Assembly: GCF_030013595.1 (NCBI RefSeq) | Contig: NZ_CP122770.1 | Strand: one strand, 5' to 3' | DNA: 64,000 nucleotides | From: Escherichia coli | GTDB taxonomy: Bacteria > Pseudomonadota > Gammaproteobacteria > Enterobacterales > Enterobacteriaceae | Part shown: piece by piece, positions 90 through 22,802 of the stretch | Numbering within the stretch: position 1 is the stretch's first letter | How the letters are laid out: every line of letters starts with the position of its first letter | Notes under the pieces: generated by a model | What the model was told of the DNA's origin: nothing | The model's database searches: none | Seen by the model: only the letters and a program-made list of their open reading frames with translations | Program-made: the position numbers and the translations under genes

Positions 90-506
90 TCAGTCATCTC
101 CGAACATATTTTCAGCGTTTCTTCTGGTCTGGTCTTCACCGTCATTTCTCGACAGACTCTGCTCTGTAAGAGGAGTACTGCAATCCACAGACGTATGGAG
201 ACCAGATTGTTTTTCCAGTAATTCAAGCAATTTCTTTTCAACCGAAAAAGCACCTGGTATCACGCTGGAAATCACCTTATTAATATCATCCAGAGTCGTA
301 TTTTCTGTCAGTAACTCCGATATCAGCAAAGGAAGACGTTTATCTATAGCTGCAAACGCCGCACCAGTAACTAACATCGCGCGCATGAAACGTCCCCGCT
401 CCTTCAGTTTTTCATTTGCAATGAGCTCATCTGCTATCTTATCTCCTGTCCGTTCATCCGGGAAAAGTTCAAATGAGCAGCGTCTGGATTTATTTTCATC
501 ACTCAT
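90..506 (-). CDS. parR: ParR/StbB-like centromere-binding adaptor of a type II (ParMR) partition system
   Basis: 138-aa ORF directly downstream of the ParM-like gene with a short start/stop overlap (499-506); N-terminal region follows the ParR(R1)/StbB(R100) pattern (..DKI..ERGR..RA.L..G...ELLT..TT..DI..). Confidence 0.6.
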   Translation of the reverse strand: MSDENKSRRCSFELFPDERTGDKIADELIANEKLKERGRFMRAMLVTGAAFAAIDKRLPLLISELLTENTTLDDINKVISSVIPGAFSVEKKLLELLEKQSGLHTSVDCSTPLTEQSLSRNDGEDQTRRNAENMFGDD

Positions 507-1478
507 TAGTCACACCACCTTTCATTTTTATCATTCCCATGACTAAATCAAACTGCGGGGATGAGCTCAGATAAAAGCGCTCATCAGGAACCTTAGTCAG
601 GTTCTTCACAGCCTCGGCCACAATTTCAGCCCCACCACCAACACACATTACATGTGTATAGTCGGTGAAACGGCTGATGACATCATTAACTCGTTTAATA
701 AGCAACTTCTGCCGTTCATTGATAACATTAATGATAGACTCACGCTGTTCAGCATTATAAATGCGACGGGAAAGGTAGTCAGGTTCATTACGGTGCACAA
801 TGATATTGTCAGCCTGGAATGAGCTCACTCTTGTATTAGCATGTACAGCCATCTGTTCCTTAACCCCGGATGTAATCAGGGACACGCCGATATTTGGATC
901 ACACCAGGTTTTTGTAATCCCTGTCATTTTGCTACGAACATGCGACACATCAAGAGTTGTACCACCGAGATCTACGATCAAAAGGGATTCATCATCCTCA
1001 AGCCCCGCAAGAACACTGAAACCAGCGGGAATACTTTCAGGAAGAACGGAAACACTGCGAATAACAAATGCATCACTCCCCTGCACCCGTACTTCACGCA
1101 TCACATTTTTTTCTTTCTTTCAATGTTTTGCTTATTTTTCTGATTGTTGGCGTCAAGGTATTCAGAGATCGGCAATGTGACGATGACATCAACAGGCTGC
1201 GCTTTCAGGCCGGTCTGCTGTAGCGCATGCTGAATGGCCACAACATTCACATCACTGTACTGATAGCGTGTTTCAGTCGTTACGACAGCATCAGCACTTA
1301 ATGGATCAAATGAAAACTTCTCGCCGTCGATCTCGTAATTAGCCGGGGCAGCATCATCCAGTAAACTAAAAGACCATTCCGGTTTAAAGCTGTTAGGGCT
1401 GATTAACGTTTTCACGTCACCATCCTCCAACCAGGCAAGTTTAATGTTGGTAGAACCATCATCAATAAAGATTTTCAT
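499..1478 (-). pseudogene. parM: ParM/StbA actin-like segregation ATPase, reading frame broken by a -1 shift in an A7 homopolymer
   Basis: N-terminal ORF ([16 protein letters not shown]..., start 1478 after GGAG RBS) ends ..NIERKKKM* at 1101; the C-terminal ORF continues in another frame (REVRVQGSDAF..LPESIPAGF..DLGGTTLD..). Both halves match ParM of R1 in order; adding one A to the run at 1106-1112 restores a roughly 326-aa protein. Confidence 0.75.
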
Positions 1479-1559
1479 AACCAGTCTCCGTTGCTCATAA
1501 ACAAATAGAAAAAACAAACATGCTTCATACATGCAATGTATATTCAATTATAATGAAAA

Positions 1560-1720
1560 AACGGTCTTTCTGAAAGGACAAATGCAACATAAAAACACGA
1601 TAAATTGCATGTACATTGTACACACAACTTTAAGACCAGAGGAAATCATAGATACAAAAACATTATGAAGGTTATATGTGATACATAAATGCAATATAAA
1701 AACATCGTGGACATCATGGT
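1560..1720. promoter_or_regulatory. parC-like centromere/promoter region upstream of parM with direct and inverted AATGCAAYATAAAAACA repeats
   Basis: Repeats AAATGCAACATAAAAACACGA (about 1580) and AAATGCAATATAAAAACATCG (about 1688) plus inverted ATTGCAT copies, in the position where ParMR systems carry parC. Confidence 0.4.
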
Positions 1721-1891
1721 TCAGGTTAGGGGAAAAGGAATGAAATGGTGAAACTGAGAGGAAAGGAAAGCGGTGACGAATCATGTCACCATAAACAGAA
1801 AGATGTCTAATGGGGACTCTTTAGGTACGTGAAGAATCCCCATAACGCATTTAAAAGACACACATCAGATACCCTTAAGGTATCCGATAGT

Positions 1892-2200
1892 TTATTGACC
1901 TATTGCACCATCACGTTCAAGCTTCTCTCTTATAGCCTCAATAATATATGAGCTAAAATCCAGAGATGTTTTACTGGTCGCTTTAAGTTCCGCATGAGCT
2001 TCAAAATACGACAGCGGTATGGCCTTAAGATTCTTAGCCTTCGTCCTGGCAGCCACGGGACGACCTGAAACTTCCTCTGCACCTTCATTTGGCTGAGACG
2101 GGGCTGTTGCTGTTACGGCAGAAGAAGAAGTTTGTAATCTGGCAGAATCCACCAGGTTTTTCAGTTTTTCAGCCTGTGCACTAAATTTCGCTTTGCTCAT
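1892..2200 (-). CDS. ParG-like small ribbon-helix-helix centromere-binding protein (partner of the ParA-type ATPase)
   Basis: 102-aa ORF immediately downstream of the ParA-like gene; C-terminal KAIPLSYFEAHAELKA..IIEAIREKL resembles an RHH fold; layout matches type Ib parFG/parAB operons. Confidence 0.5.
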   Translation of the reverse strand: MSKAKFSAQAEKLKNLVDSARLQTSSSAVTATAPSQPNEGAEEVSGRPVAARTKAKNLKAIPLSYFEAHAELKATSKTSLDFSSYIIEAIREKLERDGAIGQ

Positions 2201-2286
2201 GAGATAACCCAGGATGTTTGTTAGATACTTAAAAGATATCCATTAAAAGCCCAAAGGATACTATATGGATACCCAATAGACACACC

Positions 2287-2931
2287 TTACTGTTTGTTAT
2301 TTTCAATCAGATGATTGATTTCTTCGATCAGGGCAATAACTTCCTTACCTCCTGCCGAATAGCGCCCATGAACAGACTCAGTGATTCCCATCCCAGTCTC
2401 AATGACATCCTCAAATTCTGCACGAGCAGAAATGCGGCTCTTCATCAGCTTCAGATGTTTGAACGATGGCAGGATTGCATCAAGCTTAGGGAATTTCTTC
2501 TTGTTAGGATTAACTTTACAGAGATACAGGTGAGCAGTTATATCGGTCCCCATGATAGAGCTGATTTCGTCCAGTACTCCATCAAAATGCATCAAACCAA
2601 TACGTTCAGTCAGGGAGTCTTTTGAAGGGACAATAACGCAGTCTGCAAAGGCAATCGCAGTACGGGTAAGATCTGAGTCAAATCCCCCACAGTCAATAAG
2701 TAACGTCTTATCGCTGTTCTTGTAGGGAGTCATAATTTCGATTAACTCATCCACTGTTTTGGGTACTTTCACGGAAATTTCTTTTCCTTCAGGTCTCAGC
2801 CCCAGAATGATAGAAAGCCCGGTATGAGTATCCAGATCAACTGTATCAGACTTCATTTCACCAACAATGTTTACGGATGAAGTTGTCTTACCCACACCAC
2901 CTTTGGGATGCGTATTAGCAATAACAGGCAT
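2287..2931 (-). CDS. parA: ParA/ParF-family partition ATPase (small type Ib Walker-type ATPase)
   Basis: Deviant Walker A box KGGVGKTT near the N-terminus (MPVIANTHPKGGVGKTT), about 214 aa, GGAG RBS 9 nt upstream of the ATG at 2931. Confidence 0.85.
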   Translation of the reverse strand: MPVIANTHPKGGVGKTTSSVNIVGEMKSDTVDLDTHTGLSIILGLRPEGKEISVKVPKTVDELIEIMTPYKNSDKTLLIDCGGFDSDLTRTAIAFADCVIVPSKDSLTERIGLMHFDGVLDEISSIMGTDITAHLYLCKVNPNKKKFPKLDAILPSFKHLKLMKSRISARAEFEDVIETGMGITESVHGRYSAGGKEVIALIEEINHLIENNKQ

Positions 2932-2983
2932 AGTGTATCTCCAGAATCCACATGTAATACCCATAAAGCCCCCATAAGACACC

Positions 2984-3100
2984 TTTCGGATATCCAAGAG
3001 GTACTCAATAGATGTTTTTTTACTCTATACCGGTCCTGCATGTCAACAGAATATGAAATACCGATAATATATCCATGAGATATCCGAAAGGGATTTAAAA
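2984..3100. promoter_or_regulatory. GGATAYC-type repeats upstream of the ParA-like operon (candidate type Ib centromere/operator)
   Basis: CGGATATCCAAG (2990), ATATATCCATGAGATATCCGAAAG (3068-3090); related copies at 2232-2275 (AAGATATCC, GGATACTATATGGATACC) and 1879 (GGTATCCGATAG). Confidence 0.35.
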
Positions 3101-3110
3101 AAGTCAGAGC

Positions 3111-3890
3111 TTATGGAATTCTTTTGAGCATAGACACCGCATCGGACTCAGGCATCGAAAACTGCACCCGGTGCCGTGCAGCCACATCCAGTGCAAACAC
3201 CTTCGTGTAGACCTCCGTTGAGCTGATGGACTTATGCCCCATCAGACTCTGCAGGACCTTCAGCGGTATACCGGCATACAGCATATGCATCGCATAGGAA
3301 TGGCGGAACGTATGTGGCGTGACCGGGACAGAGAACGTCACACCATCAGCGGCAGCGGCGGCAACCGCCTCCCCAATCCAGGTCCTGACCGTTCTGTCCG
3401 TCACTTCCCAGATCCGCGCTTTCTCTGTCCTGCCTGTTCGTTTATTACGCCGTTCCATGGGGATTTTCAGTGTGGCCACCATCGTCTGCAGCTGGCTGAC
3501 GTACCAGGCGTCGGAGAGCGGAACCAGCCGGTGAGTCTGCTGACCGGCGGGCATTCTTCCTGCCGTCCTGGCGGCTTTTTCGGTCCGCTGCTTCAGAGTG
3601 GCCAGCTGCACAAACGGATACGGAGGCGTGAGCGAAAAATCCCCCCGCGTCAGCGCCAGTGCTTCATTAATGCGCGCACCGGTGTTCCACAGTGTGGCCA
3701 GCAGCATCTTGCGGCGCAGATCCGGGACGTAATGGAGCAGGGCGCTCACTTCAGGGGCCAGCAGGTATTTTGGCAGTTCATCATGAACCATCGACATCTG
3801 GCGGAGTGCCAGCGCTGCCGGATAATCGATGGCAACAGGAAGCTGAGCGGCATCCCGGGCATGGTGGATCGGTGCCGGCAGGTGCTGCAT
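3111..3890 (-). CDS. resD: Tyrosine site-specific recombinase, ResD-like plasmid multimer resolvase (phage integrase family)
   Basis: C-terminal catalytic region HTFRHSYAMHML...LMGHKSISSTEVYT (R..HxxR..Y signature); likely start MQHLPAPIHH at 3890; the close resemblance to F-plasmid ResD is from memory. Confidence 0.75.
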   Translation of the reverse strand: MQHLPAPIHHARDAAQLPVAIDYPAALALRQMSMVHDELPKYLLAPEVSALLHYVPDLRRKMLLATLWNTGARINEALALTRGDFSLTPPYPFVQLATLKQRTEKAARTAGRMPAGQQTHRLVPLSDAWYVSQLQTMVATLKIPMERRNKRTGRTEKARIWEVTDRTVRTWIGEAVAAAAADGVTFSVPVTPHTFRHSYAMHMLYAGIPLKVLQSLMGHKSISSTEVYTKVFALDVAARHRVQFSMPESDAVSMLKRIP

Positions 3891-3891
3891 A

Positions 3892-4305
3892 TCAGTGTTC
3901 ACTCCACGGGGAAACGTCGGGCAGTTTTTCCACAACCCGGTACTTTCCCGGATAACGGAGCTGGTTACCGCCACGCGTCCAGACGGTGACAACAAAACCC
4001 CCGCCCTGGTTGTTTTCGGGGAGCAGGCGATCGCACTGCTCACTCAGCATGTGGATCACGAACGGCGCATCGCTGCCGTCTTCAAATACCAGTTCCAGCG
4101 CATCGCGGCCATCCAGCGTTCCCTTACTGATGATGACGTACTCAGCCCCCCGCATCTCCCTGAGTAAATGTTTTGCCGCATCCGGGACAAGCAGCCTGGC
4201 TGCGCCGGCATTCCAGCTTAGGTAGACATATCCGGCCTGCGCCTGTACAGACTGCCAGTAATCCGTTCCGGCGACAGCCTGACCTTCATTCTCAATAAAA
4301 AACAT
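3892..4305 (-). CDS. Hypothetical protein, translationally coupled upstream partner of the tyrosine recombinase
   Basis: 137-aa ORF starting MFFIENEGQAVAG with AAGGAG RBS; its stop (3892-3894) lies 1 nt before the recombinase ATG; no family recognised. Confidence 0.5.
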   Translation of the reverse strand: MFFIENEGQAVAGTDYWQSVQAQAGYVYLSWNAGAARLLVPDAAKHLLREMRGAEYVIISKGTLDGRDALELVFEDGSDAPFVIHMLSEQCDRLLPENNQGGGFVVTVWTRGGNQLRYPGKYRVVEKLPDVSPWSEH

Positions 4306-4388
4306 GGGTGACTCCTTTTTTCTTTTCCGGGCAGGGACGGTCATGCGATAACGTCATCCGTCATCACTGCCCTTACCGTCACGCCGTC

Positions 4389-4411
4389 TGATAACATCAT
4401 GCCGTTATCAT
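4389..4411. promoter_or_regulatory. Inverted repeat TGATAAC-N8-GTTATCA, candidate recombination (res/rfs-like) site or operator
   Basis: Perfect 7-bp arms with an 8-bp spacer in the intergenic region upstream of the recombinase operon; a further GATAAC copy follows at about 4421. Confidence 0.25.
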
Positions 4412-4746
4412 CATCACCATGATAACAAGCATCCATATAACCACGCCGTTAAATTACCGGAGAGCCGCTTCCGTCAGATCCGACTTTCCTGAATATCACA
4501 ACTTTCCGGAAGTGTATCACGCTGAGGAAATAATCATATCGCTGTTTTCCGCCCCTGCGCGGCGCATCACAGGTCAGGGAGATGACACAACATATAGTGT
4601 CATCAGCAGCTGAATCAGGCACCACATGTTGTGCTGACGGGAGGTGGCGTTGTGTGGGGGGAGTGGGAGATCCGTCTCCGCCGGAAACCGGATCTGCGCG
4701 GCGGGAAACGGGCAAACGATATGATAATTAAGCAACACACATAAAA

Positions 4747-4795
4747 TCATATCAGATATGATTTTCATCGTTAAAAATTAAACAATATCTGATAT
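4747..4795. promoter_or_regulatory. Pair of palindromic ATATCWGATAT operator-like sites upstream of the 4874 operon
   Basis: ATCATATCAGATATGAT (4747-4763) and AATATCTGATATT (4783-4795), with further TCAGATA half-sites up to 4865. Confidence 0.3.
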
Positions 4796-4873
4796 TATCA
4801 GAAATCAGGAGCACACAAATCATGCAGGATATGATTTTTACCTGTCAGAACATTATCAGATGGAGCGTGCAGG

Positions 4874-5131
4874 ATGGATCAGGAAATGACGTTTTCACTC
4901 AGCTATGAACAACTGACCCGGTTTGCGGAAAAACGCATCCGGGAATGCAATCTGGACAGCCAGGGCGCGATTTATCTCTGCGAGTCAGCCAAAGCCGGAG
5001 CCGTGCTGATCTTCTGGCATGAACTGGCCATAAATGGCTATGCCTCAATGAATGCCATAAAGAGACAGGAGCTCATTGACGCCGACTTTCAGCGCCTCAG
5101 AAACCTCATCTGGCCGGAGGATGACAGGTAA
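4874..5131 (+). CDS. Hypothetical 85-aa protein, first gene of a two-gene module
   Basis: ORF with GGAG RBS; its stop overlaps the start of the next gene (TAATGA at 5128-5133), suggesting translational coupling. Confidence 0.45.
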   Translation: MDQEMTFSLSYEQLTRFAEKRIRECNLDSQGAIYLCESAKAGAVLIFWHELAINGYASMNAIKRQELIDADFQRLRNLIWPEDDR

Positions 5132-5721
5132 TGACCCAGAGCCGCCGACCGTCGCCACTGCAGCGGAGAGTGCTGATTGTGCTGGCTGCCCTTGACGAAA
5201 AACGGCCGGGTCCCGTGCTGACGCGGGACCTGGAACGGGTGCTGGAGCGAAGCGGGGAAGCCCCGGTCTACGGGCCAAACCTGCGCGCCTCCTGCCGTCG
5301 TCTGGAGAATGCCGGCTGGCTGCGTACCCTGCGCGCTCCGAACCTGCAGCTGGCAGTGGAGCTGACGGACGCCGGCCGGGCCGTGGCACAGCCTCTGCTG
5401 CTGGCAGAACAGGACCGCCTCCGGGCAGAACAGCGTGCGGCAGAAGTCGTCGTACTGCCGCTGGTCCCGGCAGCAGGTCTGCCCGCAGACGGCACTTCTG
5501 CCACTGATCTGGCGGTGGAGCTGAACGGCATGACGTATCAGGCCTGCCGTGGGGATTTTGTGGTACGTCTCGACGGCAGCACCTGTCTGCAGTTATGGAA
5601 TAAAGAAGGCAGGGTGGTACGCCTGGAGGGCGATCCGCTGGAAGTGGCGCAGTGGCTGCAGGCCTGTCACGATGCCGGAATGGAGGTTCGTGTACAGGTT
5701 AATGAAAGCGTCACCCCGTAA
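5131..5721 (+). CDS. Hypothetical 196-aa protein with an N-terminal winged-helix-like DNA-binding region; markedly GC-rich
   Basis: N-terminal LQRRVLIVLAALDEKRPGPVLTRDLERVLERSG..RRLENAGWLRT resembles MarR/wHTH domains; GC content visibly higher than neighbouring genes. Confidence 0.5.
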   Translation: MTQSRRPSPLQRRVLIVLAALDEKRPGPVLTRDLERVLERSGEAPVYGPNLRASCRRLENAGWLRTLRAPNLQLAVELTDAGRAVAQPLLLAEQDRLRAEQRAAEVVVLPLVPAAGLPADGTSATDLAVELNGMTYQACRGDFVVRLDGSTCLQLWNKEGRVVRLEGDPLEVAQWLQACHDAGMEVRVQVNESVTP

Positions 5722-12789: not shown

Positions 12790-13142
12790 AATGAAAGCAC
12801 TCCTTATGTACATGCTTAAACAGTAAGTAAAATATACAAAGAACCCCCCATGAAACAAAGGCAGAGATGAACTGTGCGCCCCGATATCTTCTTCTGATAT
12901 CCTTTCAAATGAATTGTTTTTATTTATATCATGACAACATTAAAGTGAGAGAATATATCAACCATGTTTCTGTCAGGGTTCAGTAGAATATCAATTCGAC
13001 TGTCACGCCATAACTGTAACTACCTCGAGTATAAATATTCAGAGAATGGACTTATTAGCCATGAAAAATCACCTGATGGGAAATTTACTAATTTATGGAT
13101 TGTGATATTATTAAAGAGTAAAACCAGCCAGCCGAGGTATTT

Positions 13143-13736
13143 ATGGGAAAAAATCAGGAAGAAAGGAAAACTCCCGTCATTGTGGTGAAAAAACGTCGTA
13201 CTTTTTCGCCACCGTCCTTATCCGAAAAAACAGATATTATCGCACCTGTATTTACTGAACAGACGGCAGAATCAGCCCCCGCCGGAATAAATTCATCTGC
13301 CGTCGAAACACATATCCCCGAAGCGCCAGCCAGGAAGAAGAAAAAGAAAAGACACCGTTTTCCACGTCCCTCCCACTGGACCCGTGAGTATACTCACGAG
13401 TGCGTGGAAAAAATAAAGGCCCTGTTTCCTCATCTTCGTGCTGAAGGTGGTGGATTTATTCCCCTGAAAATTGGCATAAGCAATGATATTTCGGCATTTC
13501 TGGCAGAAAGCCCGGATACAGAACTGTCCATGGACGAATGGTTCTGTGCAGTGTCCTGCATCACCTCCCGCCGCGTATATCTGCAGCGGACCTCTGTCGC
13601 CGGCGTCCCTCGTTATGGGCTGGATGGTCATCCCGATGGGCAGGTCTCAGAAACTGAAGCACAGAGTGCTGTTCAAAGACTGGCGATAATAGAACAACGG
13701 TGGCTCAGGATGAAGGAACGGCAGACTGAGCAATAA
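13143..13736 (+). CDS. FinO/ProQ-domain RNA-binding protein (FopA-like)
   Basis: Basic N-terminal half (KKKKKRHRFPRP) followed by a FinO-like domain pattern (..EKIKALFP..GGFIPLKIGISNDI..RRVYLQRTSVAGVPRYGLDGHPDGQVSE..); a hairpin GAGTCTGcttaCAGACTC follows the stop. Confidence 0.65.
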   Translation: MGKNQEERKTPVIVVKKRRTFSPPSLSEKTDIIAPVFTEQTAESAPAGINSSAVETHIPEAPARKKKKKRHRFPRPSHWTREYTHECVEKIKALFPHLRAEGGGFIPLKIGISNDISAFLAESPDTELSMDEWFCAVSCITSRRVYLQRTSVAGVPRYGLDGHPDGQVSETEAQSAVQRLAIIEQRWLRMKERQTEQ

Positions 13737-22610: not shown

Positions 22611-22802
22611 ATGAAAATACTAATCAACAATATTAAAGACCCAAGCAGACTTCTGAATGCGACTAAAACGGGACATTCAGGAGTAATTCTCTCAATACCG
22701 GTATACATTACCAATCCAATTGCACATAAAATAATGAACCCTTACTTAAAGTCCGCATTAACTAACAAACACGTATATACGAACACGGAGTCTCCGTTAT
22801 GA
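22611..22802 (+). CDS. Hypothetical small protein whose stop overlaps the pilL start
   Basis: 63-aa ORF ending at the pilL ATG (22799). Confidence 0.3.
   Translation: MKILINNIKDPSRLLNATKTGHSGVILSIPVYITNPIAHKIMNPYLKSALTNKHVYTNTESPL

Follow-up and report, generated by a model that had tools for sequence, protein, structure and literature searches.

Double partition (par) loci on plasmids have been established since pB171 and R27. In pB171, par1 is a type II parMRC system and par2 a type Ib parABC system (Ebersbach & Gerdes 2001), and both R27 and the Shigella plasmid pINV likewise carry two par systems of different types. A 2026 Nucleic Acids Research survey of PLSDB classified 19% of par-bearing plasmids as multi-system, among them 971 that combine a type I system of the ribbon-helix-helix (RHH) kind with a type II system. 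In plasmids of the I-complex, the parABS locus of pESBL and pMS7163B stabilizes mini-F, binds its own repeats and is needed for plasmid maintenance (Poidevin 2020, PMC7602700; Lian 2023, PMC10286972). Here we analyze a 64,000-nucleotide stretch of Escherichia coli DNA (RefSeq contig NZ_CP122770.1; hereafter the window) from a colicin-Ia plasmid of incompatibility group I1 (IncI1), in which an operon for a small Walker-type ParA ATPase, yefA–yegA, is followed in tandem by an actin-type operon, parM–parR. We interpret positions 90–4300, with a probability of about 0.8, as a stability block belonging to the R64-type IncI1 backbone and equipped with two segregation machines that are independent of each other. 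IncI1 plasmids rank among the major vehicles of extended-spectrum β-lactamase and AmpC genes in E. coli and Salmonella, and their persistence in the absence of antibiotics depends on maintenance modules.

A tandem double par block conserved in IncI1 plasmids

All genes of the block lie on the minus strand, in the order yedA (an open reading frame), resD (a tyrosine recombinase gene), yefA, yegA, parM and parR, and the block abuts impB. A sequence-only reading of this DNA had proposed two operons in the same orientation, a Walker-type ParA operon at 2931–1892 followed by a parM–parR operon at 1478–90, and the open reading frame list and Pfam recovered all four genes at these coordinates: yefA (2287–2931, 214 residues), yegA (1892–2200, 102 residues), parM (1478 to 499) and an intact parR (90–506, 138 residues). 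The parM and parR genes overlap by 8 nt, and 413 bp separate the two operons. Because stem-loops follow yegA and parM has a predicted promoter of its own, both described below, we treat the two par gene sets as separate operons.

We used PLSDB records to determine how widely the arrangement occurs, counting a whole block where at least 80% of the 3.2-kb par segment was covered. Part of the segment is matched by 4097 records, and 1075 records carry the whole block, including R64 (NC_005014) and ColIb-P9 (NC_002122); hundreds of IncI1 plasmids are 99.9–100% identical to it. The ParA module is present in 1130 records and the parM segment in 1083, and comparison of these counts with the 1075 whole blocks indicates that the ParA module and parMR travel together in ~97% of cases. 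Conservation of the whole 3.2 kb in so many records makes the arrangement ordinary for IncI1 plasmids, and the earlier view that a double par locus is unusual is contradicted both by this count and by the precedents and survey frequency cited above. The 971 plasmids with RHH-type I plus type II systems in the 2026 survey are close in number to the 977 records that carry a pB171-type ParR, which suggests that the survey count may refer to pB171-like and not to IncI1 plasmids; R64 and its relatives are not listed in the survey supplement.

Comparison with the double locus of pB171, made on a pB171-like locus (L012), reveals a shared composition and a different construction. In both cases an enterobacterial plasmid carries adjacent type II and type Ib modules beside a resD-type recombinase, the two recombinases being 94% identical, and repeat arrays lie upstream and downstream of the type Ib genes. 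However, the pB171-type operons are divergent and share a central parC1, whereas the IncI1 operons are arranged in tandem with separate promoters and separate repeats, and the gap between parA and parB in pB171, unlike that between yefA and yegA, lacks an array. The proteins are also not orthologous: the ParA proteins are 19% identical, the ParM proteins are 37% identical, and the two small partner proteins are dissimilar, with an hhalign probability of 0.6%. R27 and pINV differ in another way, pairing a type II system with a type Ia system that has a large helix-turn-helix ParB, whereas the Walker-type system of the IncI1 block is of the small type Ib kind.

YefA and YegA resemble a divergent type Ib partition pair

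YefA is a small ATPase with a deviant Walker A motif, KGGVGKT, at residues 10–16 and with no N-terminal helix-turn-helix extension. Residues 3–203 align to positions 1–202 of the 203-position NCBIfam profile ParA_partition with an E-value of 1.6e-14, a score below the curated cutoff, and the protein matches PHROG 164, annotated as ParA-like partition protein, at 9.4e-23. Pfam matches to AAA_31, MipZ and CbiA are weak, and a search of the Protein Data Bank (PDB) returned a single weak N-terminal match to a Soj protein. The same protein is encoded without change by R64 (WP_001144036.1).

The small gene directly downstream, yegA, encodes the presumed centromere-binding partner, whose plan of conserved tail, linker and C-terminal domain would fit such a role. 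The YegA alignment divides into a conserved N-terminal helix at residues 1–25 (consensus MSKxKFxEQAEKLKxLVGSARLQTS, with R21 invariant), a variable linker, and a near-invariant C-terminal domain at residues 53–102 that consists of an extended segment and two helices in the AlphaFold secondary structure. YegA is identical in R64, and homologs that are 59–99% identical occur in Escherichia, Salmonella, Klebsiella, Pectobacterium, Cedecea, Kosakonia and Cronobacter. An exhaustive profile search defined a family of 59 cluster representatives at 50% identity, most of them 70–100 residues long, which are alike in the C-terminal domain and in a short motif at the N terminus; YegA itself matches PHROG 19714 (3.2e-17).

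The sequence-only reading had named the first operon ParA/RHH, with a ParG-like partner. The small Walker-type ParA and its partner gene are borne out, and the RHH assignment of the partner is not demonstrated. YegA belongs to no Pfam, NCBIfam or PDB family, sequence and profile searches of the PDB were empty, and Pfam DUF3950 matched below threshold only. Direct hhalign comparison gave probabilities of 0.14% with ParG (1P94), 0.6% with pB171 ParB, 1% with pESBL ParB and 0.2% with a CopG-type antitoxin. A monomer model (mean predicted local distance difference test score, pLDDT, 65.6) contains the N-terminal helix, a disordered linker, the extended segment and two helices, and a tandem-fused pseudo-dimer model (predicted template modeling score, pTM, 0.57) packs four helices without a sheet. 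Read as a pattern, the modeled topology and the motif in helix 2 are nonetheless compatible with an RHH protein. In general plan YegA resembles TP228 ParG: the N-terminal tail is flexible and includes a conserved arginine, the C-terminal domain is compact and made of a strand-like segment followed by two helices, and the partner ATPase is small. It differs from ParG in showing no significant sequence or profile similarity and in that its models did not reproduce the RHH fold.

Three arrays of 11-bp iterons flank and interrupt yefA–yegA

Three iteron arrays, upstream of yefA, between the two genes and downstream of yegA, share an 11-bp unit with the consensus TTATGGGTATC in gene orientation. 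They comprise approximately 4+7, 7–8 and 8–9 units, respectively. The upstream control region (2934–3089), a candidate centromere, contains a TTGACA box (3046–3041) with four iterons on its distal side (3089 to 3046) and seven between the box and the yefA start (3010 to 2934). The 86-bp gap between yefA and yegA is filled by the second array (2202–2286), and the region 3′ of yegA (1771–1889) holds degenerate iterons (1889 to 1791) that overlap three stem-loops.

Autocorrelation analysis supports the 11-bp phasing of each array. Upstream of yefA the lag-11 signal reaches z = 5.9, so the repeat-bearing DNA that had been proposed ahead of this operon is recovered; the gap array gives z = 3.2, 3.0 and 2.3 at lags 11, 22 and 33, the array after yegA gives z = 2.0–2.5 at the same lags, and coding DNA has no lag-11 peak. 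Across the 64-kb window, 8 of all 19 GATAYC-like pairs spaced by exactly 11 bp fall inside the 1.3-kb yefA–yegA locus, where every other spacing from 6 to 19 bp is represented by at most one pair. A plain count of the GATAYC hexamer was also tried and was not enriched over the whole window; the signal resides in the 11-bp phasing. Three arrays occupy matching positions in relatives from Pectobacterium (L008), Cedecea (L010) and a metagenome (L011), whose YegA proteins are 61–64% identical to that of the window. In these relatives the arrays reach z = 3.3–6.8 at lag 11 or 22, the gap array alone z = 3.9–6.6, and the TTGACA box with iterons on either side is kept in L008 and L010.

The three stem-loops after yegA (RNA folding z = −5.2) include terminator-like sites at 1889–1863 and 1791–1771 and probably end the yefA–yegA transcript. 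The hairpin at 1863–1889, immediately after the yegA stop codon, is made of two inverted iterons (GGATACC TTAA GGGTATC) and also scores as terminator-like; it may serve in binding as well as in termination. As judged from sequence, the arrays and promoter together correspond to the anatomy of an autoregulated type Ib locus, with the array between the genes as an unusual extra.

This layout bears on whether yefA–yegA is a partition system at all. The two genes might instead encode a ParA-like ATPase and a small DNA-binding regulator with another role, for example in control of resD and the stability region or in placing the plasmid for conjugation, leaving parMR as the sole par system. R64 nomenclature and Lian 2023 treat only the parM/parR pair, called 'parAB R64', as a partition system, yegA has no family assignment, YefA scores below the ParA_partition cutoff, and type Ib loci do not usually have an array between their two genes. 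We consider this alternative improbable, since the protein sizes, gene order, Walker motif, basic and conserved N-terminal tail of the partner and flanking arrays together define type Ib loci, pB171 par2 and pESBL parABS among them, a single type Ib locus that stands in place of the block on pESBL and pMS7163B is required for maintenance, and the metagenome relative L011 carries the ParA module with no parMR within 5 kb. We therefore infer that yefA–yegA is a divergent type Ib-like partition module, with DNA binding and activity as predictions from its sequence.

A type Ib mechanism for the module would run as follows. YegA dimers would bind the 11-bp iterons, of the TTATGGGTATC type, and autoregulate the yefA–yegA operon; the N-terminal helix of YegA, with R21, would stimulate the YefA ATPase; and nucleoid-bound YefA would place plasmids through a gradient, as ParA proteins usually do.

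The single par locus of pESBL and pMS7163B offers a comparison within the I-complex; the par type of pMS7163B, and not that of R64, matches pESBL. Both this locus and yefA–yegA occupy the backbone site beside impB, encode a ParA of ~210 residues and a partner of ~100 residues without a known family, and have arrays on both sides. They differ in that the ParA proteins are only 24% identical, the partners are unrelated, and pESBL and pMS7163B have a single system without parMR; the pESBL repeats are tight 8-bp TTGTTATC units, compared with the 11-bp units of yefA–yegA. We considered and rejected the possibility that the window carries the pESBL par locus itself: GATAACAA octamers are unclustered in the window, in addition to the divergence of ParA and the unrelated partner.

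parM–parR is a type II system of the R1 kind

Both genes of the second operon match type II partition families. The 5′ part of parM matches Pfam StbA_N (1.2e-64, profile positions 1–123 of 158), the 3′ part matches the Pfam ParM C-terminal domain (9.1e-73), and parR matches Plasmid_stab_B (7.6e-28), confirming the type II operon proposed from the sequence alone. The intact 326-residue ParM, taken from the allele of pSAG-76334, aligns to R1 ParM (PDB 4A62, 1MWK) over residues 1–317 with an E-value of 6e-104. ParR, a centromere-binding adaptor of the type II kind, is identical in R64 (WP_001278818.1), and its N-terminal 83 residues align to pB171 ParR/StbB (PDB 2JD3, E 2e-6); over this part only, it is closer to the pB171 StbB type than to R1 ParR.

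Upstream of parM lies a parC-like control region (1479–1720). A promoter scan identified a sigma-70-like site, TTCAGA (1574–1569) and TATAAT (1552–1547) separated by 16 bp, which matches at 10 of 12 positions. The region also contains an 18-bp direct repeat, AAATGCAAyATAAAAACA, at 1580–1597 and 1687–1704, and inverted repeats at 1528–1549 and 1600–1618. The 11-bp phasing here is degenerate, with a lag-11 autocorrelation of z = 2.6–2.8; repeat-bearing DNA is thus present ahead of this operon too, as had been proposed. In the Pectobacterium relative L008, crisp 11-bp iterons lie on both sides of the corresponding parM promoter.

The likeness to R1 ParMRC extends to the end-to-end ParM match, the parM–parR order with overlapping genes, and a promoter set inside 11-bp-phased repeats. 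Unlike in R1, the repeats are degenerate and parM is frameshifted in this copy. From the domain matches and the upstream region we predict that parM–parR and its parC-like DNA form an actin-type (type II) system like that of R1. ParR would then attach to the repeats phased around the parM promoter and act as its repressor, and it would also cap the ParM filaments by which sister plasmids are pushed apart.

An apparent one-base deletion interrupts parM in a minority of plasmid records

The frameshift that the sequence-only reading had noticed in parM is present and traces to a single base in a homopolymer. Alignment to R64, ColIb-P9, pSAG-76334 and most relatives shows a run of eight A residues in the gene (A8) where the window has seven (A7; positions 1106–1112, T7 on the plus strand). 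The A7 allele breaks the ParM reading frame: the 5′ part (1101–1478) ends after codon 125 at a premature TGA (1103–1101), and the 3′ part (499–1104), encoding residues ~126–326 of the intact protein, is out of frame with it. Only 29 of the 1083 plasmid records with the parM segment have A7, ~97% having A8, and only the R64-type lineage of parM has the A8 run. Among the 29, 19 come from one Belgian sequencing project on pig enterotoxigenic E. coli (ETEC), and the remaining ten come from unrelated submitters and other hosts; in the RefSeq E. coli set, A7 occurs in 12 of 680 records, all 12 from the pig-ETEC project. Taken as read from these records, parM is occasionally frameshifted at a lineage-specific A8 run.

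Whether A7 is a mutation or a sequencing or assembly error is finely balanced. We lean slightly toward a genuine deletion. The window agrees with its relatives at 15 of 15 other checkable homopolymers of at least 7 nt, including an A8 run at 22802; it shows only 7 gap events against pESBL-EA11 in ~40 kb of aligned sequence; and the A7 allele also recurs in the ten records from other submitters and hosts. In the project plasmid NZ_CP122766.1, where RefSeq flags the A7 allele as 'frameshifted', parM is the only coding sequence so marked across 50 kb. These observations argue against an error, which would leave the true plasmid with A8 and both par systems intact as in R64. An error nevertheless has almost an even chance, as A8 predominates so strongly, one project supplies most of the A7 plasmid records and all those in the RefSeq E. 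coli set, and an 8-nt homopolymer is a classic site of long-read error. The A7 plasmids within the project range from 79 to 136 kb and have differing backbones, and NZ_CP122766.1 differs from the window by 1–1.4% elsewhere even though both have A7; clustering in one project across such varied backbones favors either a technical artefact or an allele that recombination has spread regionally. A project-mate plasmid, CP122702.1, lacks the parM region and is uninformative on run length.

The sequence around the run also allows a leaky or reversible switch, by −1 ribosomal or transcriptional slippage on AAA AAA A or by flipping between A7 and A8. The A7 allele reads AAG AAA AAA ATG TGA in the zero frame, and the wild-type KKKNVM would be regained if the P-site tRNA-Lys slipped by −1 at the final AAA; the A8 run is confined to this parM lineage, and A7 is seen again in records of several sources. 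We regard a switch as very unlikely, given that no stimulatory element or other sign of programmed shifting was found at the run, that slippage on 7-nt runs is generally weak, that no A9 allele came up, no search having been aimed at one, and that the pattern of A7 records is explained equally well by error or simple decay. If the deletion is genuine, yefA–yegA would be the sole active segregation system on this plasmid, and ParR would still be able to bind parC.

A second homopolymer of variable length lies in the promoter and iteron region of yefA, where a T7 run at 3015–3021, within the candidate −10 region, is T6 in R64.

Several of the results above weigh against two independent segregation machines in this block. 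YefA falls under the NCBIfam curated cutoff for ParA_partition; YegA has no detectable similarity to known centromere-binding proteins and its models show no RHH sheet; the repeats upstream of parM are degenerate, with z of only 2.6–2.8; and A7 may be a homopolymer error, given that 19 of 29 plasmid records and 12 of 12 RefSeq E. coli records trace to one project. We set these points against the type Ib anatomy of yefA–yegA, its conservation in relatives, and the domain matches of parM–parR, and retain the reading of a double par block.

A Walker-type par module possibly overlooked behind the R64 parAB name

The R64-type literature that we searched names only an actin-type 'parAB', and functional work on I-complex partition so far concerns parAB of the pESBL/pMS7163B type. 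Lian 2023 (PMC10286972) treats only the R64 pair called parAB and does not mention parM or stbA. Our literature search for yefA and yegA found no paper that characterizes the pair or treats it as a partition system. We consider it modestly new that the R64-type backbone holds a second, Walker-type and apparently uncharacterized par module with a tripartite 11-bp iteron layout.

A broader proposal is possible, and we hold it tentatively, at somewhat less than even odds. It would have yefA–yegA active, YegA the founder of a new centromere-binding family, and the centromere tripartite, including the array between the genes. R64-type IncI1 plasmids, about half of the I-complex, would then carry two par systems by nature, the Walker-type one having been overlooked since 'parAB' denoted the actin pair, and the A8 run would be a recurrent site of type II loss, with the plasmid surviving on yefA–yegA. 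Were yefA–yegA active, two systems would need to be considered in the stability and incompatibility of about half of I-complex plasmids and in strategies against them, natural parM frameshift alleles would provide ready-made single-system variants, and annotation would need correcting, both where yegA is called 'GroEL' and where 'type I' and 'type II' stand on the wrong system. The double block leaves what is known of the principles of plasmid partition unchanged.

The labels themselves are visible in an R64-style annotation, LC567055.1, which gives the order impC, impA, impB, parB (ParR), parA (ParM), yegA, yefA, resD and yedA. At 1740–4582 of that record, ParM is labeled 'type I plasmid partitioning protein' and the Walker ATPase YefA 'type II bacterial partitioning protein'. 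Members of the yegA family are widely misnamed 'molecular chaperone GroEL'.

Exchange of par modules and neighboring genes

The site on the impCAB side of the block serves as a point of exchange for par modules in I-complex plasmids, because pESBL-EA11 and pMS7163B carry there, beside impB, a single unrelated type Ib parAB in place of the double block. The distribution described by Lian 2023 (PMC10286972) agrees with module exchange: among 460 I-complex plasmids, 48% had 'parAB R64' and 20% the pMS7163B type.

Beyond IncI1, the order integrase, ParA, small gene, ParM and ParR is kept in plasmids of Pectobacterium and Cedecea, with a spacer of 1.1 kb between the ParA module and parMR in Pectobacterium. 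A whole inverted umuDC lies between the two modules in Cedecea (L010, 5605–7306), a DUF4113 remnant, corresponding to the C-terminal part of umuC, lies at that spacer in a Pectobacterium contig (L009, 838–1071), and in IncI1 plasmids impCAB is found beyond parR instead. An SOS-polymerase operon and the two par modules thus seem to have been shuffled as neighbors.

Directly upstream of yefA and in the same orientation is resD (3111–3890), named after R64-style annotation. Its product matches Pfam Phage_integrase (3.9e-18) and XerC/XerD-like NCBIfam profiles, and in a pB171-like IncFIB plasmid the integrase encoded after ccdAB is 94% identical to it; resD is presumed to be a multimer resolvase. 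The yedA frame (3892–4272, with the open reading frame reaching 4344; minus strand, 126–150 residues) ends one base before the resD start and has no match in Pfam, NCBIfam or PHROG. It occupies the place where F and pB171-like plasmids have ccdAB.

Identity to pSAG-76334 is 99.9% across the par region and drops to 89.6% at 4785–5708 and to 93.4% at 13080–13724 of the window. The segment at 4785–5708 is also only 89.6% identical to ETEC1739 plasmid unnamed8. This pattern of identity suggests that recombination breakpoints flank the par block.

A third par-related gene lies elsewhere on IncI1 plasmids, whose leading region encodes a 652-residue protein of the ParB/Spo0J family (pSAG-76334, L005 9150–11108). 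This leading-region protein, parB_2, is dispensable for maintenance and harmful if overexpressed (Lian 2023, PMC10286972).

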